DNA of 64,000 bases, from assembly GCF_056712565.1 (NCBI RefSeq), contig NZ_CM160072.1; one strand, written 5' to 3'. Shown here one piece after another: positions 28,842-61,412 of the stretch. The first letter of the stretch is position 1, and each line of letters begins with the position of its first letter. The position numbers and the translations under genes were made by a program. The notes beneath the pieces were generated by a model. The model was not told where the DNA came from. It ran no database searches and saw only the letters and a list, made by a program, of their open reading frames with translations.

Positions 28842-28998
28842 AGCGTCCCGCTGAAATCGTCGGCTTATCTCCTTTCGCCATGCAAGCAGTCTATCGCTAA
28901 CGCGTAGATAAAATAGTTTCATGTGTTATTACTGGATGCGTGCTCGCAAATGTGCCCGTCATTCAGACGATTCCCGACAGTGTTTCATAATTCCTCCA

Positions 28999-29016
28999 TT
29001 TTTCTCCCTTATTGGC
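28999..29016 (+). promoter_or_regulatory. BaeR box upstream of mdtA (tttttctcccttattggc)
   Basis: Matches the BaeR consensus TTTTTCTCCATDATTGGC as I recall it, ~55 nt upstream of the mdtA start. Confidence 0.6.
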
Positions 29017-29069
29017 TGGCTACACTAGTATCATTCCGCGAAACGTTTCAGGAAGAGAAACTCTTAACG

Positions 29070-30317
29070 ATGAAAGGCAGTTATAAATCCCGTTGGGTAA
29101 TCGTAATCGTGGTGGTTATCGCCGCCATCGCCGCATTCTGGTTCTGGCAAGGCCGCAATGACTCCCAGAGTGCAGCCCCTGGGGCGACGAAACAAGCGCA
29201 GCAATCGCCAGCGGGTGGTCGCCGTGGTATGCGTGCCGGCCCATTAGCTCCGGTTCAGGCGGCGACCGCAGTAGAACAGGCTGTTCCGCGTTACCTCACC
29301 GGGCTTGGCACCATTACCGCCGCTAATACTGTTACGGTGCGCAGCCGCGTGGACGGTCAACTGATGGCGTTACATTTCCAGGAAGGCCAGCAGGTCAAAG
29401 CAGGCGATTTACTGGCAGAAATTGACCCAAGTCAGTTCAAAGTTGCATTAGCACAAGCCCAGGGCCAACTGGCAAAAGATAAAGCCACGCTCGCCAACGC
29501 CCGCCGTGACCTGTCGCGTTATCAACAACTGGCAAAAACCAATCTCGTATCTCGTCAGGAACTGGATGCCCAACAAGCGCTGGTCAGTGAAACCGAAGGT
29601 ACCATTAAGGCTGATGAAGCAAGCGTCGCCAGCGCGCAATTGCAACTCGACTGGAGCCGTATCACCGCACCAGTTGATGGTCGCGTTGGTCTCAAGCAGG
29701 TTGATGTTGGTAACCAAATCTCCAGTGGCGACACCACCGGGATTGTGGTGATCACCCAAACACATCCTATCGATCTGGTCTTTACTCTGCCGGAAAGCGA
29801 TATCGCCACCGTTGTACAGGCGCAAAAAGCCGGAAAACCGCTGGTGGTAGAAGCCTGGGATCGCACCAACTCGAAGAAGTTAAGTGAAGGCACGCTGTTA
29901 AGTCTCGATAACCAAATCGATGCCACTACCGGTACGATTAAAGTGAAAGCTCGCTTTAATAATCAGGATGATGCGCTTTTCCCTAATCAGTTTGTTAACG
30001 CTCGCATGTTAGTCGATACCGAACAAAACGCCGTGGTGATCCCCACCGCCGCACTGCAAATGGGCAACGAAGGCCATTTTGTCTGGGTACTGAATAGCGA
30101 AAACAAAGTCAGCAAACATCTGGTGACACCGGGCATTCAGGACAGTCAGAAAGTGGTGATCCGCGCAGGTATTTCTGCGGGCGATCGCGTAGTGACGGAC
30201 GGCATTGATCGCCTGACCGAAGGGGCGAAAGTGGAAGTGGTGGAAGCCCAGAGCACCACTACTCCGGAAGAGAAAGCCACCAGCCGCGAATACGCGAAAA
30301 AAGGAGCGCGCTCCTGA
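29070..30317 (+). CDS. mdtA: Multidrug efflux membrane-fusion (periplasmic adaptor) protein MdtA
   Basis: ORF 28923..30317; start set at [28 protein letters not shown]. Confidence 0.93.
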
Positions 30318-33300
30318 TGCAGGTGTTACCTCCGAGCAGCACAGGCGGCCCGTCGCGCCTGTTTATTATGCGTCCTGTCGCCACCACGCTGCTGATGGTG
30401 GCGATCTTACTCGCCGGGATTATCGGTTATCGCGCCCTGCCCGTTTCGGCACTGCCGGAAGTGGATTATCCGACCATTCAGGTGGTCACGCTCTACCCAG
30501 GTGCAAGCCCGGATGTCATGACCTCTGCCGTTACCGCGCCGCTCGAACGCCAGTTTGGGCAGATGTCCGGCCTGAAACAAATGTCGTCGCAAAGTTCCGG
30601 CGGTGCGTCAGTTATCACTTTACAGTTCCAGCTAACCTTACCGCTGGATGTCGCCGAGCAGGAAGTGCAGGCCGCGATTAACGCTGCCACTAACCTGTTG
30701 CCGAGCGATCTGCCTAACCCGCCGGTTTACAGCAAAGTGAACCCGGCAGATCCGCCGATCATGACGCTCGCCGTCACCTCAACCGCCATGCCGATGACCC
30801 AGGTGGAAGATATGGTGGAAACCCGCGTCGCGCAGAAAATCTCGCAGATTTCCGGCGTAGGGCTGGTCACGCTTTCCGGCGGCCAGCGTCCGGCTGTTCG
30901 CGTCAAACTTAACGCTCAGGCGATTGCCGCCCTCGGTCTGACCAGCGAAACCGTGCGCACCGCTATTACCGGCGCTAACGTTAACTCGGCAAAAGGGAGC
31001 CTCGACGGCCCTTCCCGCGCGGTCACGCTTTCCGCGAACGACCAGATGCAATCCGCCGAAGAGTATCGCCAGCTAATCATCGCCTACCAGAACGGCGCAC
31101 CGATTCGTCTGGGCGATGTCGCAACCGTAGAGCAAGGAGCAGAAAACAGCTGGCTCGGCGCGTGGGCGAACAAAGAACAGGCCATTGTGATGAATGTCCA
31201 GCGCCAGCCCGGTGCTAACATTATCTCCACCGCCGACAGCATCCGGCAGATGCTACCACAGCTCACCGAGAGTCTGCCGAAATCGGTGAAGGTGACGGTA
31301 CTTTCTGACCGTACCACCAATATCCGCGCATCGGTCGACGATACCCAGTTTGAGCTGATGATGGCTATCGCGCTGGTAGTCATGATTATCTACCTGTTTT
31401 TGCGCAATATTCCGGCGACCATCATTCCCGGCGTCGCAGTGCCGCTGTCGTTAATCGGCACCTTCGCGGTCATGGTGTTTCTCGATTTTTCAATCAATAA
31501 CCTGACGCTGATGGCGTTAACTATCGCCACCGGATTTGTGGTCGATGACGCCATCGTGGTGATCGAAAACATTTCCCGCTATATCGAAAAAGGCGAAAAA
31601 CCGCTGGCGGCGGCGCTCAAGGGCGCGGGTGAAATCGGCTTTACCATTATCTCGCTGACCTTCTCGCTGATTGCGGTGTTGATCCCCCTGCTGTTTATGG
31701 GCGATATCGTCGGGCGACTGTTCCGCGAATTTGCTATTACCCTGGCAGTCGCGATTTTGATCTCAGCGGTGGTGTCGCTAACCCTGACACCGATGATGTG
31801 CGCACGGATGCTCAGCCAGGAGTCGCTGCGTAAACAGAACCGCTTCTCCCGTGCCTCGGAGAAAATGTTCGACAGGATAATCGCCGCCTATGGTCGTGGA
31901 CTGGCGAAAGTGCTGAATCATCCGTGGCTGACCTTAAGCGTGGCGCTCAGCACGCTGCTGCTTAGCGTGCTGCTGTGGGTGTTCATTCCGAAAGGTTTCT
32001 TCCCGGTGCAGGACAACGGCATTATTCAGGGCACTTTGCAGGCACCGCAATCCAGCTCCTTTGCCAATATGGCCCAGCGGCAACGCCAGGTCGCGGACGT
32101 GATTTTGCAGGATCCGGCAGTGCAAAGTTTGACCTCATTTGTTGGCGTTGATGGCACTAACCCGTCGCTGAACAGTGCGCGTTTACAGATCAATCTCAAA
32201 CCACTGGATGAACGAGATGACCGGGTGCAAAAAGTCATCGCCCGTCTGCAAACGGCGGTGGATAAAGTGCCGGGCGTCGATCTCTTCCTGCAACCAACGC
32301 AGGACCTGACTATTGATACTCAGGTCAGCCGCACCCAGTACCAGTTTACCTTGCAGGCCACGTCACTGGATGCGCTCAGTACCTGGGTGCCACAGTTGAT
32401 GGAAAAACTCCAGCAGCTGCCACAGCTTTCTGATGTCTCCAGCGACTGGCAGGACAAAGGGCTGGTGGCGTATGTCAATGTCGACAGGGACAGCGCCAGC
32501 CGTCTGGGGATCAGCATGGCGGATGTCGATAACGCCCTGTACAACGCGTTTGGTCAGCGACTGATTTCCACTATTTATACTCAGGCTAACCAGTATCGCG
32601 TGGTACTGGAACACAACACCGAAAATACCCCAGGCCTCGCGGCGCTGGATACCATTCGCCTGACCAGCAGCGACGGTGGCGTGGTGCCGTTAAGCTCAAT
32701 TGCCAAAATTGAGCAGCGTTTTGCGCCGCTTTCCATCAACCATCTGGATCAGTTCCCGGTAACGACTATCTCCTTTAACGTGCCGGATAACTATTCGCTG
32801 GGCGATGCGGTGCAAGCGATTATGGACACAGAGAAGACGCTGAATCTGCCGGTGGATATCACCACGCAGTTCCAGGGCAGCACCCTCGCCTTCCAGTCAG
32901 CGCTGGGCAGCACTGTCTGGCTGATTGTCGCGGCGGTGGTGGCGATGTATATCGTGCTCGGCATTCTGTACGAGAGCTTTATTCACCCGATCACCATTCT
33001 CTCGACGCTACCCACCGCAGGGGTCGGCGCGCTGCTGGCGTTAATGATTGCCGGTAGCGAACTGGATGTGATTGCCATTATCGGCATTATTTTGCTGATC
33101 GGTATCGTGAAGAAGAACGCCATCATGATGATCGACTTCGCGCTGGCTGCTGAGCGCGAGCAAGGCATGTCGCCGCGCGAAGCTATTTACCAGGCTTGTC
33201 TGTTGCGTTTTCGTCCGATCCTGATGACCACTCTGGCGGCTCTGCTTGGTGCGCTGCCGCTGATGTTGAGTACCGGGGTCGGCGCGGAACTGCGTCGTCC

Positions 33301-33439
33301 GTTAGGTATCGGCATGGTCGGCGGTCTGATTGTCAGCCAGGTGCTGACGCTGTTTACCACGCCGGTGATTTATCTGCTGTTCGACCGTCTGGCATTGTGG
33401 ACCAAAAGCCGCTTTGCCCGTCATGAAGAGGAGGCGTAA
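30317..33439 (+). CDS. mdtB: RND multidrug efflux transporter MdtB
   Basis: 1040-aa ORF with 12-TM RND architecture. Confidence 0.95.
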
Positions 33440-36400
33440 GTGAAGTTTTTTGCCCTCTTCATTTACCGCCCGGTGGCGACGATTTTACTGTCGGTCGCCA
33501 TTACCCTGTGCGGCATACTGGGTTTCCGTATGCTGCCAGTCGCCCCGCTGCCGCAGGTCGATTTTCCGGTGATCATGGTCAGCGCCTCGCTGCCCGGTGC
33601 GTCACCAGAAACAATGGCGTCTTCCGTTGCCACGCCGCTGGAGCGCTCACTTGGGCGCATTGCCGGAGTCAGCGAAATGACCTCCAGCAGTTCGCTCGGC
33701 AGCACGCGCATTATTTTGCAGTTTGATTTTGACCGGGATATCAACGGCGCAGCGCGCGATGTGCAGGCGGCGATCAACGCCGCGCAAAGTCTGCTACCCA
33801 GCGGGATGCCCAGCCGTCCGACCTATCGCAAAGCGAACCCGTCGGATGCGCCAATTATGATCCTCACGCTGACATCCGATACTTATTCGCAGGGTGAACT
33901 GTACGATTTCGCCTCGACACAGCTGGCTCCGACGATTTCGCAAATCGACGGTGTCGGTGATGTCGATGTTGGCGGCAGCTCGCTGCCCGCCGTACGCGTC
34001 GGGCTGAATCCGCAGGCGCTGTTTAATCAGGGCGTCTCGCTGGACGACGTACGCACCGCCATCAGCAATGCCAACGTGCGTAAACCGCAGGGGGCGCTGG
34101 AAGATGGTACTCACCGCTGGCAGATCCAGACTAACGATGAACTGAAAACCGCCGCTGAATATCAGCCACTGATTATTCATTACAACAACGGCGGCGCGGT
34201 TCGTCTGGGCGATGTGGCGACGGTGACCGACTCAGTACAGGATGTGCGCAACGCCGGGATGACCAACGCCAAACCGGCTATTTTGCTGATGATCCGCAAG
34301 CTGCCGGAAGCCAACATTATCCAGACGGTAGACAGCATCCGCGCCCGTCTGCCGGAATTACAATCCACCATCCCGGCAGCAATTGATCTGCAAATTGCCC
34401 AGGATCGCTCCCCTACTATCCGCGCGTCGCTGGAAGAGGTTGAGCAGACGCTGATTATCTCGGTGGCGCTGGTGATTCTGGTGGTGTTTTTGTTCCTGCG
34501 TTCGGGTCGCGCCACCATTATTCCCGCCGTTGCGGTGCCGGTTTCGCTGATTGGTACGTTTGCGGCGATGTACCTGTGTGGTTTCAGTCTCAATAATCTT
34601 TCGTTAATGGCGCTCACCATCGCCACTGGCTTTGTGGTGGATGACGCCATCGTGGTGCTGGAAAACATTGCCCGTCATCTGGAGGCGGGGATGAAACCGC
34701 TACAGGCCGCGCTGCAAGGTACTCGCGAAGTCGGCTTTACGGTGCTGTCGATGAGTCTGTCACTGGTGGCGGTGTTCCTGCCGCTGCTGTTGATGGGCGG
34801 ATTGCCGGGTCGCCTGTTACGCGAGTTTGCCGTGACGCTTTCTGTCGCCATTGGTATTTCGCTGCTGGTTTCCCTGACGTTAACGCCGATGATGTGCGGC
34901 TGGATGCTAAAAGCCAGCAAGCCGCGCGAGCAAAAGCGACTGCGTGGCTTTGGTCGCATGTTGGTAGCCCTGCAACAAGGCTATGGCAAGTCGCTGAAAT
35001 GGGTGCTCAATCATACCCGTCTGGTGGGCGTGGTGCTGCTTGGCACCATTGCGCTGAATATCTGGCTGTATATCTCGATCCCGAAAACCTTCTTCCCGGA
35101 GCAGGACACCGGCGTACTGATGGGCGGGATACAGGCTGACCAGAGTATTTCGTTTCAGGCGATGCGCGGTAAGTTGCAGGACTTCATGAAAATTATCCGT
35201 GACGATCCGGCGGTGGATAATGTCACCGGCTTTACCGGCGGTTCACGGGTGAACAGTGGAATGATGTTTATCACCCTTAAACCACGCGGCGAGCGGAGCG
35301 AAACGGCCCAACAGATTATCGATCGCTTGCGTAAAAAACTGGCGAAAGAACCGGGAGCGAATCTGTTCCTGATGGCGGTACAGGATATTCGCGTTGGCGG
35401 ACGTCAGGCTAACGCCAGTTACCAGTACACGTTGTTATCCGACGACCTGGCGGCACTGCGCGAATGGGAGCCGAAAATCCGCAAAAAACTGGCGACATTG
35501 CCAGAGCTGGCTGATGTTAACTCCGATCAGGAAGATAATGGCGCGGAGATGAACCTTATTTACGATCGCGACACCATGGCGCGATTGGGAATTGACGTGC
35601 AAGCCGCCAACAGCCTGTTAAATAACGCCTTCGGTCAGCGGCAAATCTCGACCATTTACCAGCCGATGAACCAGTACAAAGTGGTGATGGAAGTTGATCC
35701 GCGCTATACCCAGGACATCAGTGCACTGGAAAAAATGTTCGTTATCAATAACGAAGGAAAAGCGATCCCGCTGTCGTATTTCGCTAAATGGCAACCGGCG
35801 AACGCTCCACTGTCGGTGAATCATCAGGGATTATCGGCGGCCTCGACCATTTCGTTCAACCTGCCGACCGGGAAATCGCTCTCGGACGCCAGTGCGGCGA
35901 TCGATCGCGCAATGACCCAGCTTGGTGTGCCTTCGACGGTGCGCGGCAGTTTTGCCGGAACAGCGCAAGTGTTCCAGGAGACGATGAACTCACAGGTGAT
36001 CCTGATTATCGCCGCCATCGCCACGGTATATATCGTACTGGGTATCCTTTACGAGAGTTATGTGCATCCACTGACGATTCTCTCCACCCTACCCTCGGCG
36101 GGCGTCGGAGCGCTGTTGGCGCTGCAGCTGTTCAATGCCCCGTTCAGCCTAATTGCGCTGATAGGGATCATGTTATTAATCGGCATCGTGAAGAAAAACG
36201 CCATTATGATGGTCTATTTTGCGCTTGAAGCCCAACGGCACGGTAACCTGACGCCGCAGGAAGCTATTTTCCAGGCCTGTCTGCTGCGTTTTCGCCCGAT
36301 TATGATGACTACCCTGGCGGCGCTGTTTGGTGCGCTGCCGCTGGTATTGTCGGGCGGTGACGGCTCGGAGTTGCGGCAACCATTGGGGATCACCATTGTC

Positions 36401-36517
36401 GGCGGTCTGGTCATGAGCCAGCTTCTGACGCTGTATACCACGCCGGTGGTGTATCTCTTTTTCGACCGTCTGCGGCTGCGTTTTTCGCGTAAACCTAAAC
36501 AAGCGGTAACCGAGTAA
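33440..36517 (+). CDS. mdtC: RND multidrug efflux transporter MdtC
   Basis: 1025-aa [32 protein letters not shown]. Confidence 0.95.
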
Positions 36518-37933
36518 ATGACAGATCTTCCCGACAGCACCCGCTGGCAATTGTGGATTGTGGCTTTCGGCTTCTTTATGCAGTCGCTGGACACCACCAT
36601 CGTTAACACCGCGCTTCCCTCAATGGCGCAAAGCCTCGGGGAAAGTCCGTTGCATATGCACATGGTCATTGTCTCTTATGTACTGACCGTGGCGGTGATG
36701 CTGCCCGCCAGCGGCTGGCTGGCGGACAAAGTCGGCGTGCGCAATATTTTCTTTACCGCCATCGTGCTGTTTACTCTCGGTTCACTGTTTTGCGCGCTTT
36801 CCGGCACGCTGAACGAACTGTTGCTGGCACGCGCGCTACAGGGCGTTGGCGGCGCGATGATGGTGCCGGTCGGCAGGTTGACGGTGATGAAAATCGTACC
36901 ACGCGAGCAATATATGGCGGCGATGACCTTTGTCACGCTGCCCGGTCAGGTCGGGCCGCTGCTTGGCCCGGCGCTCGGAGGTCTGCTGGTGGAGTACGCA
37001 TCGTGGCACTGGATCTTTTTGATCAACATTCCGGTGGGGATTATTGGCGCGATCGCCACACTGATGTTAATGCCGAACTACACCATGCAGACGCGGCGCT
37101 TTGATCTCTCCGGCTTTCTGTTGCTGGCGGTTGGCATGGCAGTCTTAACCCTGGCGCTGGACGGCAGTAAAGGTACAGGTTTCTCGCCGCTGGCGATTGC
37201 TGGCCTGGTCGCAGTTGGCGTGGTAGCACTGGTGCTTTATCTGCTGCACGCCCAAAATAACAACCGCGCCCTGTTCAGTCTGAAACTGTTCCGCACTCGT
37301 ACCTTTTCGCTGGGCCTGGCGGGGAGCTTTGCCGGACGTATTGGCAGTGGCATGTTGCCCTTTATGACACCGGTTTTCCTGCAAATTGGTCTCGGTTTCT
37401 CGCCGTTTCATGCCGGACTGATGATGATCCCGATGGTACTCGGCAGCATGGGAATGAAGCGAATTGTGGTACAGGTAGTGAATCGCTTTGGTTATCGTCG
37501 GGTACTGGTGGCGACCACGCTGGGCCTGTCGCTGGTCACCCTGTTGTTTATGACTACCGCTCTGCTGGGCTGGTACTACGTTTTGCCGTTCGTCCTGTTT
37601 TTACAAGGAATGGTCAACTCGACGCGTTTCTCCTCCATGAACACCCTGACGCTGAAAGATCTCCCGGACAACCTGGCGAGCAGCGGCAACAGTCTGCTGT
37701 CGATGATTATGCAATTGTCGATGAGTATTGGCGTCACCATCGCCGGGCTGTTGCTGGGACTTTTTGGTTCGCAGCATGTCAGCGTCGACAGCGGCACCAC
37801 ACAAACCGTCTTTATGTACACCTGGCTTAGCATGGCGTTTATCATCGCCCTTCCGGCGTTTGTCTTTGCCAGAGTGCCGAGCGATACGCATCAAAATGTG
37901 GCTATTTCACGGCGAAAAAGGAGCGCGCAATGA
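36518..37933 (+). CDS. mdtD: MFS transporter MdtD
   Basis: 471-aa ORF with 14-TM MFS pattern. Confidence 0.93.
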
Positions 37934-39333
37934 AGTTCTGGCGACCCGGTATTACCGGCAAACTGTTTCTGGCGATTTTCGCCACCTGCATTGTCTTATT
38001 GATCACGATGCACTGGGCGGTACGTATCAGTTTTGAGCGCGGCTTTATCGATTACATCAAGCATGGTAATGAACAACGGCTGCAAATGCTCGGCGATGCG
38101 CTTGGTGAGCAGTACGCCCAGCACGGGAACTGGCGCTTCCTGCGTAATAACGATCGCTTTGTATTTCAGATCCTACGTTCACTGGAGCATGATAACAACG
38201 AAGATAAGCCCGGCCCCGGTATGCCACCACACGGCTGGCGCACGCAATTTTGGGTGGTTGATCAAAATAATAAAGTGCTGGTTGGCCCGCGAGCACCGGT
38301 TCCACCCGACGGCACACGGCGGCCCATTATGGTCAATGGTGCGGAAGTTGGCGCGGTGATCGCCTCCCCTGTTGAACGACTGACCCGTAATACTGATATC
38401 AATTTTGACAGACAACAGCGGCAAACCAGTTGGCTGATTGTGGCTTTATCTACCTTATTAGCGGCGCTGGCGACATTCCCACTGGCGCGCGGTTTGCTGG
38501 CTCCGGTAAAACGACTGGTGGATGGCACGCACAAACTGGCAGCGGGTGATTTCACTACTCGCGTAGCCCCCACCAGCGAAGATGAGTTGGGCAGACTGGC
38601 AGAGGATTTCAATCAACTCGCCAGCACACTGGAGAAAAACCAGCAGATGCGCCGCGATTTTATGGCCGATATTTCTCATGAACTGCGCACGCCTTTAGCA
38701 GTACTGCGCGGCGAACTGGAAGCCATTCAGGATGGTGTGCGTAAATTCACGCCGGAGACGCTGGCTTCTTTACAGGCAGAAGTCGGAACACTGACAAAAC
38801 TGGTTGACGATCTCCATCAATTGTCTATGTCTGATGAAGGCGCTCTCGCCTATCAAAAAGCACCGGTAGATTTGATCCCACTGCTGGAAGTGGCGGGAGG
38901 CGCATTTCGCGAACGATTCGCCAGCCGTGGCCTGAAATTGCAATTTTCCCTGCCAGACAGTATTACCGTATTTGGCGATCGCGATCGTTTAATGCAGTTG
39001 TTCAATAACTTACTGGAAAACAGCCTGCGCTACACTGACAGCGGCGGCAGCCTGAAAATCTCTGCCGAACAGCACGACAAAACGGTGCGCCTGACCTTTG
39101 CCGACAGTGCGCCGGGTGTCAGTGACGATCAGCTACAAAAATTGTTTGAACGTTTTTATCGCACCGAAGGTTCCCGCAACCGCGCCAGCGGTGGTTCCGG
39201 GCTGGGGCTGGCGATTTGCCTGAACATTGTTGAAGCACATAACGGCCGCATTATTGCCGCCCATTCGCCTTTTGGCGGGCTTAGCATTACAGTAGAGTTA
39301 CCGCTGGAACGGGATTTACAGAGAGAAGTATGA
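37930..39333 (+). CDS. baeS: Envelope-stress sensor histidine kinase BaeS
   Basis: 467-aa ORF; H-box ISHELRTPL; HAMP and ATPase motifs. Confidence 0.93.
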
Positions 39334-40052
39334 CCGAGTTACCAATCGACGAAAACACACCGCGTATTTTGATCGTGGAAGATGAACCGAAGCTGGGGCA
39401 GTTGCTCATTGATTATCTGCGTGCTGCGAGCTATGCGCCAACGTTGATTAGCCACGGCGATCAGGTACTGCCATATGTGCGCCAGACACCACCGGATCTG
39501 ATCCTGTTGGATCTGATGCTCCCTGGCACCGATGGCCTGACGCTGTGCCGGGAAATTCGTCGTTTTTCTGACATTCCGATCGTGATGGTGACGGCAAAAA
39601 TCGAAGAGATCGACCGCCTGCTGGGGTTGGAGATTGGCGCAGATGACTATATCTGCAAGCCGTACAGCCCACGGGAAGTGGTAGCGCGCGTCAAAACCAT
39701 TTTGCGCCGTTGCAAACCGCAGCGTGAGTTGCAGCAACAGGATGCTGAAAGCCCGTTGATTATCGACGAAGGTCGTTTTCAGGCTTCCTGGCGCGGTAAA
39801 ATGCTTGACCTGACGCCTGCAGAATTTCGTCTGCTGAAAACGCTCTCTCATGAACCAGGAAAAGTGTTCTCCCGCGAGCAGTTGCTGAACCATCTTTATG
39901 ACGACTACCGCGTGGTAACCGACCGTACCATCGACAGCCACATTAAAAACCTGCGCCGCAAGCTGGAATCTCTCGACGCCGAACAGTCATTTATCCGCGC
40001 CGTTTACGGCGTCGGTTACCGCTGGGAAGCCGACGCCTGCCGCATCGTTTAA
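39330..40052 (+). CDS. baeR: OmpR-family response regulator BaeR
   Basis: 240-aa ORF; receiver domain and winged-helix C-terminus. Confidence 0.95.
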
Positions 40053-47825: not shown

Positions 47826-48989
47826 TCACTCATCATCTTCTGTTTCGTACTCCACATCAGAAAGCCTGACCTCAAGCTCCAAGGACGTCGTGAAGCCGCT
47901 ATTATTCAGAAAATGTGTCACCTTAGTGATTGTCCAGTCCTGCTCGTCTATGACGCGCTTAAAGCCTGACACTTTAACCGGTGTTTCCGTGTAAATATCT
48001 GCCCGACCGGTAGCCAGGCTGATGGAGAACTCCGCAACGCCCCGTTGCAGCTTATCCCACTTCGCCTGAGCGGCGCGCATGGCCTGCGCTTTCGTGGCAT
48101 ATACCGCGGTCAGGGCAAAAACATTGTCAGCCTCACCTGCCATGTATTCACCTTCGCGCGCTTCCGGTACTTTTGGCGCTTTCTTCTGCGTGACTGGTTT
48201 CGCTTTCGGGTGCTCCAGTGCGCGCAGGTGTTTCTCTTTCTTTTTGCGTTTCAGTTTTACCTTCTGCTTTTGTGGCTTCGGGTCTTTGGTGTGTAACCAC
48301 TTTGCCGTTACGCCGGTATAGGCTCCACGGTCAGCAATCGCAAAATGATGGCGGTCGCCGTCGCTGCGGGTGATGGTAATCTGCGGGATTTTTTTACCGC
48401 TGGCCGTCACCCCCTGCCCCGCCTTGAGAAACAACAGTTTTCCCATTTTTACCGACACCTCACCGCCGTTGCGTTCAGCAAGGCGGGTCAGGAATTTTGC
48501 ATCAGACTCCTGCGACTGGTCGATGTGCGGGATTTTAATTCCGGCCAGTGACGGAGCGACACTGGCTTCCAGCCTGTTACGGGAGGCTATCGCTTCAACA
48601 ATCGCACCGAGCGTGGTGTCATGCCAGGAGCCTTCACGGCGGGAATTGAGCGTCCCGCGAAAATCTGCACTCCGGGCGCGGATGGTGACCACATCCGGTG
48701 CGCCCCGGTGTTCAACCTCATCAACGGTAAATTTCCCTTTGCATACCAGGGCAAAACCTTTCCAGCCGATATACACCGTCAGGACAGCGCCACGAACCGG
48801 CAGCCCGACCTGCCCGTCGGCATCGTTCAGTTCAATATCAAGCTGGTCAGCCTCAAAGCCCCGGTTATCCGTCAGGGTCATGCTCATCAGACGGTCGCTG
48901 ATATTGCCGGTAATATCCCTGTTGTCGAGCATCAGCATGTAATCCGGCGTCAGCGTACTGCCTGCATCAAATGTCAGTGCATCCAGCAT
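47826..48989 (-). CDS. D: P2 gpD-like late control / tail protein
   Basis: 387-aa ORF MLDALTFDAGSTLTPDYMLMLDNRDITGNISDRL. Confidence 0.9.
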   Translation of the reverse strand: MLDALTFDAGSTLTPDYMLMLDNRDITGNISDRLMSMTLTDNRGFEADQLDIELNDADGQVGLPVRGAVLTVYIGWKGFALVCKGKFTVDEVEHRGAPDVVTIRARSADFRGTLNSRREGSWHDTTLGAIVEAIASRNRLEASVAPSLAGIKIPHIDQSQESDAKFLTRLAERNGGEVSVKMGKLLFLKAGQGVTASGKKIPQITITRSDGDRHHFAIADRGAYTGVTAKWLHTKDPKPQKQKVKLKRKKKEKHLRALEHPKAKPVTQKKAPKVPEAREGEYMAGEADNVFALTAVYATKAQAMRAAQAKWDKLQRGVAEFSISLATGRADIYTETPVKVSGFKRVIDEQDWTITKVTHFLNNSGFTTSLELEVRLSDVEYETEDDE

Positions 48990-54220: not shown

Positions 54221-54253
54221 ACAGATAAAGAAAAGGCGGGCAATTCGCCCGCC
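54221..54253 (-). terminator. Intrinsic terminator on the minus strand, upstream of the FI promoter region
   Basis: Hairpin ggcgggc-aatt-cgcccgcc with a T-rich tract on the minus strand (ttttctttatctg). Confidence 0.55.
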
Positions 54254-54316
54254 TGTCCTGATTTGTACTCACTCATTTTCCGCCTGACAATTTACATAGC
54301 CCAAATGCTATCAAAC

Positions 54317-54334
54317 CTGACAGTCTGCTTTGAG
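54317..54334 (+). repeat. Copy 1 of ~16-bp motif CTGACAGTCTGSTYTG (ctgacagtctgctttgag)
   Basis: Shares a 13-mer with copy 3 and an 11-mer with copy 2. Confidence 0.7.
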
Positions 54335-54460
54335 CGAAAAGTGGACATTAGAGTTACAAAAGCAAGTTTAAATCATCCAAAATATTACAATGTCCTTATC
54401 TATCTGATATCGTTATGATAAAAAGCTCCTGAATATAATCGATAGTAGGTGGTTATTTCC

Positions 54461-54838
54461 ATGAAATCAATTTTAGAGGTCTTTACTCAAGGAAATACTA
54501 AAGAAAAACTGGCTGTTATCGCCGATCTCACAACCATTGCGGGAATATCGATTGCAACTATTATTGCTGGTTTGTTAACCCTAGTTGCAAAAACAGATAA
54601 ACTAGATGTTGGAAATCTGTTTGGAGTTGTCATAATATCTCTGCTCGGATTGGCTGGTGTTTGCTGTTTTGTGGCCTTATTTATTTGGGTTATAACCCAA
54701 ATGTCTAAACCATGGGGAACACCTCGGGGGGTTCAGCCCTTAGTTAAGTGTGCTATTTCCCTTATCTTTATCTGTATGTTTTTGCTGGCTGTCTTTACAT
54801 TTTATGAGTTTATTTCTTCGATGAGCATACGCTATTGA
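54461..54838 (+). CDS. Small three-TM-helix membrane protein of unknown function (prophage cargo)
   Basis: ORF 54449..54838; ATG at 54461 (MKSILEVFTQGN); three hydrophobic helices; AT-rich; convergent with the recombinase gene. Confidence 0.5.
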   Translation: MKSILEVFTQGNTKEKLAVIADLTTIAGISIATIIAGLLTLVAKTDKLDVGNLFGVVIISLLGLAGVCCFVALFIWVITQMSKPWGTPRGVQPLVKCAISLIFICMFLLAVFTFYEFISSMSIRY

Positions 54839-54860
54839 ATATAAAATCAGCCCCCATAAC

Positions 54861-55547
54861 TTAAAAGAGACCTTCTATATCGACTTCAATGCCCAAATAA
54901 CGGACTGTGCTTTCCAGTTTCTTATGGCCCAACAGAAGTTGGATCACCCGGAGACTCTTGGTTTTCTTGTAGATTAAGTAAGGTTTTGTTCTTCTCATGG
55001 AATGTGTGCTGTACAGCGAATCTTCGAGACCAAGCTTTTCTACCCACCCATGAAAAATTCGGTTGTATTGCCGGGTTGATATATGGTGGTTAGTTCCGAC
55101 CCGAGAGCGGAACAGGAAGCCTTTACTATGCCAGTTGCCGAGCTTTATCAATGCAGTAACCGCTTCCCTTGTCCCTTTGGTTATCTCAAATTGGACAGGG
55201 CTGCCGGTTTTCTGTTGCAACACCGTTGCTCTGCTTGAGACAGAACTGCCATATGCAGCATCTGATACTTTGAGTTTGACCAAATCACAGCCCCGTAGCT
55301 TAGTGTCCAAAGCCATGTTGAACAGAGCTAGATCGCGTGTTTTACCTTCCAACTCAAGTCTAATCCGGATCCCCCAGATATGAAATATCTGAAGTGGCCT
55401 TTTTTGACCGATGGTACGGTCTTTATTCCACGGTGACGTTTTCATATTCAAATCTCCTGCAATGTGGGAGATTTGAGTATGGTTGTCTCTCAAGAGCGAA
55501 AATAAGTCAACTATCACTAGTTGTTGCGCATGTACGTATTCTGTCAA
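54861..55547 (-). CDS. Short tyrosine-type site-specific recombinase (catalytic domain with only ~50-aa N-terminal extension)
   Basis: 228-aa ORF with the tyrosine-recombinase motif series: R in DTKLRGCDL, HSMRRT (H-x-x-R), LLGH, Y in TVRYLG; starts 4 nt after the stop of the upstream 280-aa gene. Confidence 0.6.
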   Translation of the reverse strand: MTEYVHAQQLVIVDLFSLLRDNHTQISHIAGDLNMKTSPWNKDRTIGQKRPLQIFHIWGIRIRLELEGKTRDLALFNMALDTKLRGCDLVKLKVSDAAYGSSVSSRATVLQQKTGSPVQFEITKGTREAVTALIKLGNWHSKGFLFRSRVGTNHHISTRQYNRIFHGWVEKLGLEDSLYSTHSMRRTKPYLIYKKTKSLRVIQLLLGHKKLESTVRYLGIEVDIEGLF

Positions 55548-56291
55548 TTAATTATTGACAATCATCAATTCTGGAATGATCAAAATCATCATATCGAATT
55601 ATAGTCTGGTTGACTGTATCTATTGTTGGTGTCATTTCTGTTATAATATCCTGATAACCTAAAGAGTTAAATACATTTACTAAGGCCTCACACCGAAGGG
55701 CCGTAGCAATTACAAAATTATAAATTGCCAGCCGTTTATTTTCTTGTTTAACTGCAAGAATGAATTCGATAGCAGTATTTTCATCACTTTGGATTGCATT
55801 ATATAGAGATACTATATTTACCATATCATCAGAGAATGTATGTATTGAATCACAAAGGGGAACGTAATGGGCATGATAGTGTGTTTCCCAGCCAATTAAT
55901 TCAAAAAGTCTTCTGGTTCCTGGATATTCAGGTGTATTTGGCCACAATCTATTAAATAGATCAGTTAGTTCTTTTCCCATGCGAATCCTTTCATTTGCTG
56001 CTGGATTAGTCATTCCTTTGGATTTTAAACACTCCAGCCACCGTTTTCCATTACTATGAACTAATTTCTTACTAGCCTTGAGTAATGCTTGTGCATTTTC
56101 GCCATCATCTATTGCTATATAAAATTGATTGGCAGCCTGTTCTATTATAACCCTAGCTAATACTTCCGATGCTGAAAAGGCTCCTATATTCAAAGAAGAG
56201 ATAGCCTGATTACTAAGTTCATTCAGTACATTAAAGTACTGTAAGACCATCAATTTTTGTTCCACACCCTTTAGGTTGTCTGGATTTGCCC

Positions 56292-57197
56292 CTATATTTC
56301 CAGACACCTGTTATCACTTAACCCATTACTGGCTTGCTGCCGTAGATATTCCCGTGGCGAGCGATAACCCAGTGCACTATGCGGATGCCATTCGTTATAA
56401 TGCTCGAACGCCTCTGCAAGGTTCTTTGCTGCCGTTAACCCGTCTGGTTTGGGCATGACACTGATGTAGTCACGCTTTATCGTTTTCACGAAGCTCTCTG
56501 CTATGCCGTTACTCTCCGGACTCCGCACCGCCGTGCTCTTCGGTTCAAGCCCCAACATCCGGGCAAACTGCCGTGTTTCATTAGCCCGGTAGCATGAACC
56601 ATTATCCGTCAGCCACTCTACTGGAGACGCCGGAAGCTCGTTGCCGAAGCGGCGTTCCACCGCTCCCAGCATGACGTCCTGTACTGTTTCACTGTTGAAG
56701 CCGCCCGTAGTGACCGCCCAGTGCAGTGCCTCACGGTCACAGCAGTCCAGCGCGAACGTGACTCGCAGTTTTTCTCCGTTATCACAGCGGAACTCGAACC
56801 CGTCAGAGCACCATCGCTGATTACTTTCTTTCACAGCCACTCTGCCTGTATGTGCCCGTTTCGATGGCGGTACAGCAGGTTTTCGCTCAAGCAACAGCGC
56901 ATTCTGGCGCATGATCCGGTAAACACGTTTGGCATTGATCGCAGGCATACCATCAAGTTCTGCCTGTCTGCGAAGCAGCGCCCATACCCGACGATAACCA
57001 TACGTGGGCAGCTCTCCGATAACATGGTGTATACGGAGAAGCACATCCGTATCATCAGTGTGACGACTGCGGCGGCCATCCATCCAGTCATCGGTTCGTC
57101 TGAGAATGACGTGCAACTGCGCACGCGACACCCGGAGACAACGGCTGACTAAGCTTACTCCCCATCCCCGGGCAATAAGGGCGCGTGCGCTATCCAC
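56292..57197 (-). CDS. insD: IS2 transposase OrfB (InsD, DDE catalytic domain)
   Basis: 301-aa [41 protein letters not shown]. Confidence 0.9.
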
Positions 57198-57520
57198 TTT
57201 TTTGCCCGTCCATATTCAACGGCTTCTTTGAGGAGTTCATTTTCCATCGTTTTCTTGCCGAGCAGGCGCTGGAGTTCTTTAATCTGCTTCATGGCGGCAG
57301 CAAGTTCAGAGGCAGGAACAACCTGTTCTCCGGCGGCGACAGCAGTAAGACTTCCTTCCTGGTATTGCTTACGCCAGAGAAATAACTGGCTGGCTGCTAC
57401 ACCATGTTGCCGGGCAACGAGGGAGACCGTCATCCCTGGTTCAAAGCTCTGCTGAACAATTGCGATCTTTTCCTGTGTGGTACGCCGTCTGCGTTTCTCC
57501 GGTCCTAAGACATCAATCAT
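57155..57520 (-). CDS. insC: IS2 OrfA (InsC, HTH); fused to OrfB by -1 frameshift in the 57155..57197 overlap
   Basis: ORF 57155..57565; start set at [26 protein letters not shown]. Confidence 0.85.
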
Positions 57521-57768
57521 CTGCTCTCCAATGACTAGTCTAAAAACTAGTATTAAGACTATCACTTAAATAAGTGATATTGGTTGTCTGGAGATTCAGG
57601 GGGCCAGTCTATTGTCTATTTTATTTTTATGCTCCTCAAATTTTGCATGGATATATTTATTTATCGCGGCTATTTTTTTTACATCTTCGTCAAGATCAAA
57701 CGGGCAACGTCCAAACAATTCTTTTTTCATATATTTCTCCTGTTGTACAAGCTTCCATAAGTTGGCAG

Positions 57769-57774
57769 ATTATA
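57769..57774 (-). promoter_or_regulatory. Candidate sigma70 -10 hexamer (TATAAT) ~40 nt upstream of the 280-aa gene start
   Basis: Plus-strand attata at 57769..57774; no clear -35 identified. Confidence 0.3.
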
Positions 57775-57962
57775 CACTGAAGATTACCTATAAATAGCTG
57801 TGCGGGATAGCAGATCAGTGCAAGAAGTACAACCAAGTGAACTGTGCGTATTCAGATACCTGGCCTAACGTTCGCGATAGCCGTCCCCTGCACGAAGCCA
57901 TATATTAGATGTATTAGCTCAGACCTTATCTGACAGGTTGAGTAGGTAGAATCTAATCAAAG

Positions 57963-57980
57963 CTGACAGTCTGGTTTGGA
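57963..57980 (+). repeat. Copy 2 of the motif (ctgacagtctggtttgga), same orientation as copy 1
   Basis: Direct repeat of copy 1; together they bracket the whole cargo module. Confidence 0.7.
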
Positions 57981-58080
57981 CTGTGAGTTCAACCGATGGA
58001 TGCAACACACAGCGATCTACGGACATTACTAGCATAGCTGTGTATTAATCATCGGGAAGCAGGTCAGTCCGCTCCTAGCA

Positions 58081-58096
58081 CAGAGCAGACTGTCAG
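58081..58096 (-). repeat. Copy 3 of the motif, inverted (minus strand reads ctgacagtctgctctg)
   Basis: Inverted relative to copies 1 and 2; 102 bp from copy 2; sits in the loop of a 10-bp perfect stem (58076..58085 with 58108..58117). Confidence 0.7.
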
Positions 58097-58151
58097 ATTA
58101 GGCTTTACTCTGTGCTATAGATACGTTAGCTCACTCCAGAGATCATACAAC

Positions 58152-58679
58152 TTATTGCGGCATTTCCGGCCATTCAGGATTTGCAGGATCCACACGGCTG
58201 ACCAGAACACTGTAGCGTTCCCATGCTTCCAGTCGGCTACGCTCCTCATCTGTTGCCATATTCAGTCTGACAGAGCGTTCCAGTGGCTGAATGATAGTTT
58301 CAGCTTCGGAAAGCAAAGCTGACTTCTGTAATTCCGCCAGTTGCAGCTGTTCGTCTGCCGTATAAATCCGCTTAATCACGGCACCATCCTTAAACATCCA
58401 TTTACCTGAGTCATCAGCACGTCGGTTGGCGGTAATATCAGGAACCTCGACAACGCTAAAACCTTCAGGGTTGAGCGTTGAAGCATCTCTGGTGATGCCG
58501 ACAATTATATTATTCTCATCGTAAACAATCTTTATCGTGTCTTCCTGAAAATTACTTACTTCCTCATACCAGTTTTTTCCCTCTTCGGACCATAACCAGA
58601 TAACATCAAAATTTTTTGTCAGTTGATATTGGGCAACAGTTTTTGGATTACCCGCAGTAATATTTTTTAAATGCTGCAT
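58152..58679 (-). CDS. G: P2 gpG-like tail fibre assembly protein
   Basis: 175-aa ORF immediately downstream of the tail fibre gene. Confidence 0.85.
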
Positions 58680-58682
58680 AAA

Positions 58683-61412
58683 TTACACCTGTGCGACGTT
58701 ATACCATGTGCCATTGATGTATTTTTGTATTGGTCTGAATACTGCGGGGTCATCACCATCGACTTCACCGACAATACCAAGCCCGGTAATTACGTGCCCT
58801 GCTTTCTCATACATCACCCCTTTCTGCATGGTCTGGACAACACGTGTGCCAAGTCTGACATCTCTCACATAGCGGGAATCAAAGTTACCGTAATCCGAGG
58901 GATTAACACGCCCCGTAATATTTATGGTTTTATTACTTTGAACGCTTCCGGAGACAAAGCGCATAACATGGACGCTATTAGCATAAACATCCAGATTACC
59001 ATCACCATTTTGTTTAAAGCCCGTGTCATTATCACCCAAAACAATCGAATTACCGCCAAGAGCACTGGATGTTCCTATACCCAGAGCACCATTCAATTGA
59101 CCACCAGATAACGGCAGTGCACCGACATCTCCCGCTGTAGGTTTTCGCGTTGTGGTATAAAACTCAGACCAGTCAGCCTCGAATCCGTAACCGTCACGAG
59201 CAGAACGATAAAAAATACCACCGTTCTTATAATTAACGCGAAACTGGGCGGCGGGACAACTTCCTTCCCCGATATTAAAATGAAGAATTAACGTTGATGC
59301 CCCACCAATAGTTGCGTTATAGGCTCCGCTACTCCAGTTCCATCCAACGGCTTTATCATTCGCAACGGTGTCTCCTGTTTTTCCTGAAGCAAATGCACCA
59401 ATATTTTTCGGCGTCAGGTTAATATCTGATGTTCCATCAAACGAAACGTTATTAATTTTACGGGCTGTTTTCAGCTTTGTTGCTGTCGCCGCATTGCCGG
59501 ACAGTTCACCAGAAAGGCCAGCACTGAATGTCTGTTTCGCGCCCCATGTCTGGGCTTCGTCGATAATTGGCACACGTCTTGTCGTGATCGTGCGGCTTCC
59601 CGGATTTCCTGAAATACGCACCATAAAAAAGCGGTAGTTGGCTTTACTTACAGTGCTGCGCCATACATGCATTGAGCGTCCCGAACCAGAATCATCACTC
59701 GGACCGACTGAGATGTTTATCAGGTTGCCATCAATGACGCCCCAGTCCATACCGTCGGGAATATTGGTCATGTTATCCAGCCGAACGGTTATCAGACTGC
59801 CCGGCACAAAATCGTATGTCTGCCAGTCCAGGCTGGTGAGTTTTGCCACTGCGCCACCGATACCCAACTCTAACGGCAAAGAGTTTGAGTTATAAATCTG
59901 TCGCCACTCCCCCCACGCGTTAAATGAGCCACCAAGAAACACTCGCTCATATAAACGGTCTTTTGTAGCTGCGCTGGTTCCTGTGGTCGTGTAACGTTGC
60001 AAAACATAGACACCATCCTTGCGCCTGATGACTTCCAGAAAACCAGACTGCCCCTGGATTGGGGTGTGGGTCGCTTTGCCTGTCACACTGTAAATACCTG
60101 GAGACATCAAATCATCCAGGTCATCCTCATAGAAGGTACTACTGGTCTGATAACCAATTTGGATCCAGTCTTCCCACTGTGGATTTTCTGCATCCCATTT
60201 GGCTGTCAGGCCGCGAATATACATAGTCCCGTTACGGGTTGTATAACGCTGTGTGCGTCCATATAGCCCACCTTCGAAAATTTCCAGAATGCCCTGCGCG
60301 TCTCCTCCCTGCTCGGGGTAATGTCGTTCAAAAGAAGCTATTGCTGAACTGCTGTTTCTCCATAGACCTAAATGTTCTGCGCCACCGAGAGAGTTAAGGT
60401 CAATGGTCGTACTTAGAGCTCGCGTTACAGCCTGAACATGGCGCCATGCTCCCCATGGTCCATCATTACCATTCCATGTTCCAATGAGTTTGCGGATATA
60501 CAAATTTCCGTCACGTGTGGTATAGCGTTGCGTGCCTGCAAAATTGCCGCCAGTAAAAACCTCAAGCACACCGACAGCATTATCTTCAGGGAAGTTTTTC
60601 TCCAGTGTTGCGTTGGTGGACGTTGCTTTAGACCAGATACCTGAATAAGCCTTAACAGAACCAAACGTATTCAGATCAGCATCAACCGGCATTTCGCCAT
60701 TGTTTTTCATAAACGTCAGGCTGGTAACGCCAACATTGTCCAGAAAAGCTGATTTATCCTGGATATCTGCACCATTCTGATTTTTCGCCAGACGTGAATT
60801 TGCGTTGTCATTTGCTGCCTTGACCGCTTTTGGCGTTGCTGCCAATGACTCACTGGTGCTGTTTGTTGCACTGCTTAACTGAGTAAAACCTTTTTCTGTC
60901 AGCGTGGCGTCAGGATGGCGGCGGGACTGCTCATGCTCTGCGATTTTGTCATCGACGTAATCCTGCGTCGCCATCACTGTGCTGGCATCAATACTCAGCT
61001 CAACGGACGCCACGTTACTGACAATAATAACCATGCGGCAGGTCTGCGCACGCCCGGAGCCTTCAGCCAGTTCTGGCTTATAGCTTTCAGCCATGTTGGA
61101 TACCGCAATCAGTGTTCCGGCATCGTCATACAGACCAAGCTCACGCATCCAGAAGCCGCCCACTTCGGGCGGTACAACCAGTTCAGCCACGATATAGTTT
61201 TTATTCTTGTTATCCACGCTGACTTTATTCAGAGCGTGACGCCAGACCTCATGCACCAGTTTCGTCTGACCGGCATCCGGCACCGGCAATTTGCCATTAC
61301 CGTCACCCACGGCCATTGCAGACAGGGTTACTTTTTTCCCGCCGGGGACAGTGGCGGCTGCCAGCTTTGCGGCTCCGGCAGTAGTGATAACGGTTTTAAA
61401 TTTCGTGCTCAT
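58683..61412 (-). CDS. H: P2 gpH-like tail fibre protein (long variant, 909 aa)
   Basis: N-terminus MSTKFKTVITTAGAAKLAAATVPGGKKVTLSAMAVGDGNG is P2 H-like; extended Gly/Thr/Ser-rich distal region. Confidence 0.85.
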   Translation of the reverse strand: MSTKFKTVITTAGAAKLAAATVPGGKKVTLSAMAVGDGNGKLPVPDAGQTKLVHEVWRHALNKVSVDNKNKNYIVAELVVPPEVGGFWMRELGLYDDAGTLIAVSNMAESYKPELAEGSGRAQTCRMVIIVSNVASVELSIDASTVMATQDYVDDKIAEHEQSRRHPDATLTEKGFTQLSSATNSTSESLAATPKAVKAANDNANSRLAKNQNGADIQDKSAFLDNVGVTSLTFMKNNGEMPVDADLNTFGSVKAYSGIWSKATSTNATLEKNFPEDNAVGVLEVFTGGNFAGTQRYTTRDGNLYIRKLIGTWNGNDGPWGAWRHVQAVTRALSTTIDLNSLGGAEHLGLWRNSSSAIASFERHYPEQGGDAQGILEIFEGGLYGRTQRYTTRNGTMYIRGLTAKWDAENPQWEDWIQIGYQTSSTFYEDDLDDLMSPGIYSVTGKATHTPIQGQSGFLEVIRRKDGVYVLQRYTTTGTSAATKDRLYERVFLGGSFNAWGEWRQIYNSNSLPLELGIGGAVAKLTSLDWQTYDFVPGSLITVRLDNMTNIPDGMDWGVIDGNLINISVGPSDDSGSGRSMHVWRSTVSKANYRFFMVRISGNPGSRTITTRRVPIIDEAQTWGAKQTFSAGLSGELSGNAATATKLKTARKINNVSFDGTSDINLTPKNIGAFASGKTGDTVANDKAVGWNWSSGAYNATIGGASTLILHFNIGEGSCPAAQFRVNYKNGGIFYRSARDGYGFEADWSEFYTTTRKPTAGDVGALPLSGGQLNGALGIGTSSALGGNSIVLGDNDTGFKQNGDGNLDVYANSVHVMRFVSGSVQSNKTINITGRVNPSDYGNFDSRYVRDVRLGTRVVQTMQKGVMYEKAGHVITGLGIVGEVDGDDPAVFRPIQKYINGTWYNVAQV

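Follow-up and report, generated by a model that had tools for sequence, protein, structure and literature searches.

A small tyrosine recombinase and two classes of heterospecific site as a candidate cassette-exchange platform with probable defence cargo in the P2 Z/fun locus

We analysed a stretch of 64,000 nucleotides from contig NZ_CM160072.1 (RefSeq assembly GCF_056712565.1; hereafter the window), in which a P2-like prophage carries, between its gene G (58152-58679, minus strand) and the sheath gene FI (start at 54130, minus strand), approximately 4 kb of AT-rich DNA (GC 0.35-0.42 as against ~0.56 in the flanks) that holds a DUF5677 gene split by the insertion sequence IS2, a gene for a small tyrosine recombinase and a convergent gene for a protein with three transmembrane segments (3-TM protein). 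Our central proposal, to which we give a probability of roughly 55%, is that this locus is a natural cassette-exchange platform built on two heterospecific sites, here termed L and R, whose cargo in the window consists of two probable single-gene defence cassettes. With less assurance, and somewhat short of even odds, we advance the wider proposal that the recombinase of ~200 residues together with L and R constitutes a previously unrecognised cassette-exchange system, integron-like yet distinct, that extends across Gammaproteobacteria and supplies the missing swap mechanism for defence genes, and for marine metal-resistance and lipid A (eptA-type) modules, in P2 Z/fun loci, lambdoid prophages, 'integrase-only' islands and plasmids. 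The sequence-only reading that singled out this interval had placed it between the tail fibre assembly gene G and FI and described it as AT-rich, both of which the coordinates and GC values confirm. It had also taken the content for non-P2 cargo in the Z/fun accessory locus; this is borne out by a tblastn search with the 280-residue DUF5677 protein, which found no match among 50,697 phage records (P2 included) though a PHROG family for it exists, and by the DNA similarity of the interval to P2-type phages, which is limited to the flanking repeats. The P2 Z/fun accessory locus thus holds foreign cargo here.

The proposal is carried in the first place by the sites and by their order. Hidden Markov models (HMMs) of the two site classes were scanned with nhmmer over all fetched loci. 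The R consensus is GTCCGC-TYY-TCGCTC-ANA-GCGGAC and the L consensus GTCCGC-TYT-GTGCCA-RGA-GCGGAC: the arms are common to both and the 6-bp centres differ (TCGCTC versus GTGCCA). Everywhere, in P2, lambdoid, island, plasmid, Proteus and Idiomarina loci, the arrangement follows the same grammar, backbone-L-cargo-(R-18 nt-L)-cargo-R-recombinase-L-cargo-R-backbone, in which cargo always lies between an L and an R and the recombinase is the only gene in the R...L linker position. An R site, the 18-nt linker and an L site together make up the junction of ~66 bp between adjacent genes in these loci. All 69 sites with an HMM score of at least 14 (39 R and 30 L) have the orientation of the recombinase gene and are thus direct. 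ATCC 25922 has an L site that forms a perfect 12-8-12 palindrome, with a DNA fold z of -4.6; the single-strand DNA fold of the junction element is unremarkable (z ~-1.6) and gives no basis for attC-like folded substrates.

In the window, the P2 'left inverted repeat' has as its core the L-type site GTCTGCTCTGTGCTAGGAGCGGAC (58067-58091, minus strand; nhmmer score 23), where similarity to other P2 phages stops, and the 'right inverted repeat' has as its core the R-type site GTCCACTTTTCGCTCAAAGCAGAC (54323-54346, minus strand; nhmmer score 20). Alignment with the Z-region records AJ512676, AJ512680 and AJ512683 of the study by Nilsson, Karlsson and Haggard-Ljungquist revealed that the annotated left and right inverted repeats of P2-EC30, P2-EC46 and P2-EC58 contain one L and one R site. 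Both inverted repeats border foreign DNA in the window, as expected of a P2 Z locus. In the P2-EC46 Z region (L003, 1611-1634) there is an extra L-type site between two 'lysogenic conversion' open reading frames (ORFs), which indicates that this classic record, too, consists of two cassettes.

The annotation of the borders as inverted repeats, together with a recombinase of the size of FimB/FimE that weakly matches a tyrosine-type invertase model (22.9 bits, E=5e-5), would accord with a Fim-type invertase that flips the P2 inverted-repeat segment and makes its cargo phase-variable. We find this barely credible: the match stays far below the curated cut-off of 222, the L and R centres are asymmetric and unlike each other, all sites are direct, and in each of the 35 of 5426 complete E. 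coli genomes that carry the IS2-free three-gene arrangement (DNA identity at least 99.7%) the locus has one orientation and aligns in a single piece. Inversion and phase variation are therefore rejected on the direct orientation of the sites and the single orientation in the 35 genomes, and the earlier suggestion of a phase-variable module is abandoned with them.

The borders of the recombinase gene coincide with the same sites. A unit of ~700 bp, which reaches from ~55 nt 5' of the ATG to ~40 nt 3' of the stop codon, recurs with 88-95% identity in six contexts or more and has unrelated DNA on either side of it (the comparison comprised the P2 copy and those of a lambdoid prophage, a plasmid and two chromosomal islands). 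Its 5' border falls inside a 24-bp dyad composed of a variable left arm, TCGCTC and a right arm, and its 3' border is a second dyad element with the centre GTGCCA. The 5' border of the unit in the window is a degenerate R site, GTTGAC-TTATTT-TCGCTC-TTGA-GAGAC (55485-55511, minus strand), aligned with R sites in five other contexts; here, too, conservation starts in the TCGCTC centre. Three lambdoid prophages have one backbone and wholly different arrays, and their homology stops right after L to resume in the TCGCTC centre of R, the left arm of which is phage-specific. Likewise, the 3-TM cassettes of two P2 phages agree in sequence as far as the R site, beyond which they diverge. It is on these curated comparisons, not on a pooled count, that the breakpoint case rests.

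With a DNA identity of 80-95%, the recombinase gene occurs in 868 of the 5426 complete E. coli genomes, and its family numbers no fewer than 8000 clusters at an E-value of 1e-10 or lower. The nearest recombinases, 77-95% identical, come from Providencia, Proteus, Pantoea, Erwinia, Pectobacterium, Sodalis, Idiomarina, Pseudoalteromonas, Cycloclasticus and others. In Proteus, the gene lies in an island at icd with L upstream and R downstream. In Idiomarina (L053, 8001-15534), the recombinase is followed by L, a 6.9-kb module that encodes a phosphoethanolamine transferase of the EptA type together with a two-component pair, and R, and in Cycloclasticus-type marine contigs (L055-L057, ~8001) it has arsenic and copper/cus resistance modules on its two sides. 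Cargo is therefore not limited to defence, and the platform may also move resistance cargo. Separately, junction elements of ~66 bp in E. coli loci (L058-L063, ~7001-7070) were seen to separate cargo genes in a P2 Z locus (a hypothetical gene from a DUF3800 gene), in an e14-like prophage after pinE, in an ICE-like (integrative and conjugative element-like) island at tRNA-Thr (AAA ATPase and HNH genes from a DUF4297 gene), in a tRNA-Leu island with restriction endonucleases, and in others.

Reading the grammar as the footprint of a recombination reaction, we infer that the recombinase acts catalytically at the L and R sites. It would bind the shared arms and exchange strands within the 6-bp centre, and the unlike centres would confine recombination to L x L and R x R pairs. 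One L x L and one R x R event between two L...R loci would swap the cargo and leave both backbones intact, and inside one array a lone event of either kind would release a circle of R-linker-L plus cargo, the re-insertion of which would reproduce the observed junction structure. Exchange of this kind could explain how P2 hotspots change their defence genes on a constant phage backbone.

A different account of the same arrays, which we hold to be unlikely while giving it real weight, accepts L and R as true cassette boundaries and treats the small recombinase as a hitch-hiker or relic, the exchange being due to RecA, Red/RecET-type functions, XerCD or a phage integrase; the conserved repeats of 24-66 bp would be the substrate of its short-homology route. 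The recombinase lies within 7 kb of only one of six junction elements that were found independently by their own sequence and is absent near the other five, and most P2 Z loci, indeed the vast majority, are without it; therefore, in recombinase-free arrays the enzyme would have to act in trans, or another enzyme would be responsible. The arm-centre-arm layout of L and R is Xer-like, and lambdoid hosts encode their own recombination functions. Against the hitch-hiker account, the recombinase alone fills the R-gene-L position, and does so in every context; all 69 sites are oriented as its gene is; and identical arms around different centres suit a site-specific enzyme, not homologous recombination. 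As for the XerCD variant, the sites are not known to resemble the E. coli dif sequence.

Besides the rarity of the recombinase near the junctions, several observations weigh against the platform or the nature of its cargo. When homology breakpoints are pooled, 9% lie near sites as compared with 1.8% at random, an enrichment of only ~5-fold, the weakness of which is due to swamping by phage-backbone mosaicism. The recombinase has only ~34 residues ahead of its catalytic domain, so that the N-terminal core-binding domain of ~100 residues that is usual in Xer, Cre and integrases is not present, and the copy in the window has a non-native C-terminus and no L site. No circle, empty site or swapped isogenic pair was seen directly, and recombination is read from the arrangement of the arrays. 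On the side of the cargo, the canonical HEPN motif Rx4-6H does not occur in the DUF5677 protein, which has no conserved arginine 5-7 residues before H185. Further, in the serine-recombinase study a DUF5677 gene of Enterococcus or a related lactic-acid bacterium, assayed with six Enterococcus phages, is not listed among the five active candidates (10.1101/2025.10.07.681051).

The recombinase itself (54861-55445, minus strand; 194 residues, with the native C-terminal ~11 residues replaced) belongs to the tyrosine recombinase superfamily, as it matches PF00589 over residues 35-184 (E=1.2e-17) and its sequence has all the catalytic residues, R51, K79, H148, R151, H174 and Y183. The length of 194-200 residues is constant over thousands of homologues, and the native form used for comparison has 200 (examples of this length are WP_023147793 and WP_001305361). 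It scores far below the NCBIfam Xer models (XerC 43.1 bits, cut-off 335; XerD 25.6, cut-off 330; XerA 49.2, cut-off 220), does not reach the integron-integrase models (NF011946 18.3 bits, cut-off 435; TIGR02249 18.2, cut-off 265) and, as mentioned, falls short of the invertase model; with scores so far under the cut-offs, membership of the integron, Xer or Fim families is rejected.

The sequence-only reading had started the recombinase 4 nt after the stop of the 280-residue gene. That start belongs to a TTG-extended ORF: the RefSeq start is the ATG at 55445, 106 nt past the DUF5677 stop, and it is backed by the cross-context DNA conservation, which begins ~53-55 nt 5' of this ATG. The spacing of 106 nt and the ATG start rule out translational coupling between the two genes. 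The gap is occupied by the degenerate recombination site and by a hairpin with a 15-bp stem, formed by an inverted repeat (55443-55481, minus strand), over the Shine-Dalgarno sequence and start codon of the recombinase. Its RNA fold has a free energy of -19.2 kcal/mol (z -3.2). In distant homologues 83.6% of the alignment cells at the specified hairpin are paired, as against ~40% in slid controls, and in five pairs both partners have changed; this count is clearer than the output of RNAalifold, which returned only three pairs on the recombinase leader. By analogy with some insertion sequences, the hairpin probably blocks translation from read-through transcripts, in that it would hide the ribosome-binding site from ribosomes on messages begun outside the unit. 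We also considered this 15-9-15 inverted repeat as a lox-like site and rejected that in favour of an anti-Shine-Dalgarno hairpin, since what is conserved in distant homologues is the pairing and not the sequence.

At its other end, the recombinase unit passes abruptly into the 3-TM cassette at a fusion point, 54878/54879 (minus strand): homology to the recombinase in all other contexts stops at the very base where homology to the 3-TM cassette of strain SaT040 (L019) begins. A deletion has therefore taken the last ~11 recombinase codons, the L site and ~330 nt of the 3-TM cassette. The copy in the window is thus decayed twice over, by IS2 in the DUF5677 gene and by the loss of the C-terminal tail of the recombinase and of its L site. 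In two P2-like viral contigs whose G is 100% identical to that of the window, the recombinase match ends after residue 109 (L035, 6001-6327) and after residue 35 (L048, 6001-6105), which suggests more independent truncations or insertions in P2-borne recombinases.

The DUF5677 gene begins at an ATG at 57730 and is interrupted by IS2 (1331 bp, 56281-57611, minus strand, recognised by its terminal inverted repeats), which has duplicated the 5-bp target GACAA (56276-56280 and 57612-57616). The N-terminal part of the gene, up to IS2, occupies 57612-57730 (minus strand; reconstructed with the intact homologue WP_000711883) and the C-terminal part with the stop 55552-56280 (minus strand; assigned by PF18928, phrog_4167 and an AlphaFold2 model). 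Deletion in silico of IS2 and one copy of GACAA yields an ORF of 280 codons that ends at the stop 55552-55554, and E. coli ATCC 11775 has this ORF unbroken and with 100% identity, under the RefSeq name "DUF5677 domain-containing protein". The claim that IS2 splits the gene is in this way upheld, as is the view that the system is inactive in the present strain through IS2; the IS2 allele occurs in none of the 5426 complete E. coli genomes. The Shine-Dalgarno sequence and candidate -10 ascribed to the gene can both be read directly in the sequence (57738-57776, minus strand): GGAG at 57738-57741 lies 8 nt 5' of the ATG, and the candidate extended -10 is TGTATAAT at 57769-57776, which a simple promoter scan did not pick up.

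The 280-residue protein is a member of DUF5677, with a match to Pfam PF18928 over residues 50-194 (E=2e-9) and to phrog_4167 (E=2e-202). Its AlphaFold2 model (pLDDT 95) is all-helical, and the fold neighbours of the model are helical bundles of the HEPN superfamily (AbiU2-like, LA2681-like and Apea-like). The predicted structure may thus resemble HEPN folds of the abortive infection (Abi) type; a Foldseek search of the model against the PDB gave no match at E<=0.001, PDB sequence searches with the DUF5677 profile and the recombinase gave nothing useful, and hhalign detected no relation of the DUF5677 profile to the Proteus YaaC cargo protein or the HEC-08 cargo protein. Residues R81, E85, Y173 and H185 are invariant among 46 homologues, R81 and H185 being on different helices. 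The protein is most likely an Abi-type effector and possibly a nuclease.

The 3-TM gene (54461-54838, plus strand; 125 codons; WP_000836023; phrog_4155, E=8e-83), predicted in the sequence-only reading as a convergent small three-TM protein, is a genuine ORF that is annotated in RefSeq relatives. Whether it forms one defence or exclusion system with DUF5677 and the recombinase, the latter regulating the others or cooperating with them, can be judged from the occurrence of each gene with and apart from the others. The three are adjacent in the 35 genomes; a DUF5677 gene that is 86% identical stands together with the recombinase in a lambdoid prophage at ~89% DNA identity over 1.8 kb; and DUF5677 is among the domains enriched next to serine recombinases in Bacillota (10.1101/2025.10.07.681051). 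However, the lambdoid pair has no 3-TM gene and its recombinase has a 74-nt deletion. The 3-TM gene occurs in 63 genomes, as compared with 35 with the full set, and in the P2 Z locus of SaT040 (L019) it stands beside a DUF6650 gene, without DUF5677 or recombinase and with a junction element between the two cassettes. Homologues of DUF5677 at a greater distance (41-54% identity) occur by themselves, either at chromosomal sites or, in other prophages, following the replication genes. The neighbours of the recombinase are different in each context examined, and the genes are not translationally coupled. We accordingly deem a three-gene system highly improbable: the co-occurrence in 35 genomes is linkage in one prophage lineage, not evidence of joint function, and the DUF5677 and 3-TM genes are two independent single-gene cargo cassettes with the recombinase between them. 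So, while comparison of G-FI intervals bears out that the three genes travel together free of IS2, an obligate partnership does not follow, and the idea of one functional module fails on the fact that each gene is also found apart. Just 5' of the lambdoid pair there is an IS3-family element (L006, 3483-4696 and 5949-6433); with the 74-nt deletion, this means that both known DUF5677-linked copies of the recombinase are damaged.

The exchange platform is also informative about the function of this cargo. Twelve of the 30 cargo proteins scanned from arrays are known or candidate anti-phage proteins: PD-T7-1, PD-T7-5, HEC-08, the DS11 CBS-domain protein (405 bits against a cut-off of 260), Old, PtuA and PtuB (Septu), bSEFIR, a WYL protein, PDC-S32, PDC-S06 and a PDC-M01B-like protein. 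Because the other cargo of the arrays is so often anti-phage, the DUF5677 and 3-TM proteins are probable single-gene defence candidates by association, and we infer a defence function for both; the 3-TM protein is most likely a membrane exclusion or effector protein. Neither of the two is recognised by NCBIfam, and PADLOC-DB 2.0 has no family for DUF5677, the recombinase or the 3-TM protein at E up to 1. The defence-scanner search proposed in the sequence-only reading thus left the two proteins unrecognised, and the cargo at G-FI is probably defence-related. What survives of the notion of an undescribed defence-type module is hence that the DNA is foreign, unrecognised by scanners and probably concerned with defence; what does not is the single system of three genes.

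Read from G to FI, the interval begins with the L site, a cassette that looks emptied (a 45-nt block and half an R site), a further repeat termed site B and the DUF5677 gene, and continues with the degenerate R, the recombinase, the 54878/54879 fusion, the 3-TM cassette, the R site and an intrinsic terminator (54234-54254, minus strand) that ends the locus ahead of the FI late promoter. The segment next to L (58011-58066, minus strand) comprises the conserved block of ~45 nt and the left half of an R site (GTCCGTAGATCGCT), matches L015 2912-2968 and L018 7055-7100, and looks like an empty or collapsed cassette. A block of this kind, GACCTGCT.CC.G.TGATTAA.ACACAG...TAGTAATGTCCGT, lies directly upstream of R sites and junction elements in unrelated cassettes. 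Site B (57930-57987, minus strand) is like the right inverted repeat, being a direct repeat of 54284-54332 with 71% identity, and is kept upstream of the DUF5677 gene in the lambdoid prophage, that is, it travels with DUF5677. The left flank of the L site, ~30 nt long (GCACAGRGTARAGC...), is kept between the P2 and lambdoid backbones (58091-58125 in the window; L015 1755-1780; L022 22-46) and can pair with the centre of the L site (GCACAGAG / CTCTGTGC); it might serve as an accessory arm or represent the site in a folded state. The tail fibre gene H (58683-61412) belongs to the minus-strand tail end of the P2-like prophage, which makes up the right-hand ~16 kb of the window, with its last large phage ORF at 47826-48989. 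The rest (1-47800) is chromosomal and includes a run of large ORFs on the same strand at 28923-40052 (464, 1040, 1025, 471, 467 and 240 aa).

These proposals bear on a wider question in the biology of prokaryotic conflicts. The defence genes in P2/P4 hotspots and 'integrase-only' islands turn over extremely fast, and the mechanism by which such hotspots and islands swap their content is stated to be unknown (PMC10121019; 10.64898/2026.02.27.708500). The present locus offers a concrete candidate for it in the form of one small enzyme and two 24-bp sites. If the proposal is true, the P2 inverted repeats, seen since 2004, would be explained; L and R would be a sequence signature for new defence cassettes, as attC is for integrons; and the heterospecific pair would be a natural cassette-exchange tool. 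Independently of this, DUF5677 and the 3-TM protein are prioritised as single-gene defence candidates, the intact DUF5677 allele being available in the type strain ATCC 11775.

Our literature searches, which are no proof of novelty, returned no earlier description of the recombinase or of the site grammar; several known systems offer partial parallels. At the level of the cargo, the HEPN Abi proteins are helical-bundle fold neighbours of the DUF5677 model and have the prophage and defence-island context in common with it; the DUF5677 protein differs from them in having neither a sequence-level match nor the Rx4-6H motif. The serine-recombinase-associated defence loci likewise use a recombinase as a marker for defence and have DUF5677 among the enriched neighbours; however, the enzyme there is of another superfamily and the hosts of another phylum, and the section of that report considered here describes no site grammar or exchange mechanism (10.1101/2025.10.07.681051). 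At the level of the platform, a first parallel is with the integrons (IntI, attI, attC and the clusters of attC sites lacking integron-integrases, CALINs). Both have a tyrosine recombinase with ordered arrays, in one orientation, of short cassettes of one to few genes; separators of ~60-70 bp that are imperfectly palindromic and consist each of two simple sites; many arrays without a recombinase, as in CALINs; and cargo that is often anti-phage. Unlike IntI, the recombinase here has ~200 residues and a near-absent N-terminal domain, and scores ~18 bits against cut-offs of 265 and 435; its gene sits inside an inter-cassette junction rather than at the head of the array by attI; and the cassettes have promoters of their own, run in either direction and are bounded by two heterospecific site types instead of one. 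Set against the R- and L-box consensus, with no attC scan run, L and R also do not appear to resemble attC.

The pdif modules of the XerCD-dif system provide a second parallel, in that short arm-centre-arm sites with a 6-bp centre bracket modules in many replicons and the enzyme may act in trans. They differ in that here a dedicated recombinase is embedded in the arrays and two sites with a linker, rather than one site, separate the modules; the recombinase scores 43 and 26 bits against cut-offs of ~330 for XerC and XerD, and no sequence relationship of L and R to dif is known. The logic of shared arms, incompatible centres and a double event that swaps the cargo is that of engineered cassette exchange with heterospecific lox or FRT sites; those are man-made, whereas the L/R version would be natural. 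Finally, the locus and the repeats are the same as those of the P2 Z/fun region of Nilsson, Karlsson and Haggard-Ljungquist (2004, Mol Biol Evol 21:1), a study represented here by a summary, according to which it proposed site-specific recombination at the repeats (PMC8987985); within that limit, we found no enzyme assigned to the P2 inverted repeats in the literature. Our analysis goes beyond that work in that it resolves the repeats into two site classes and ties them to a recombinase gene that is found well outside P2.

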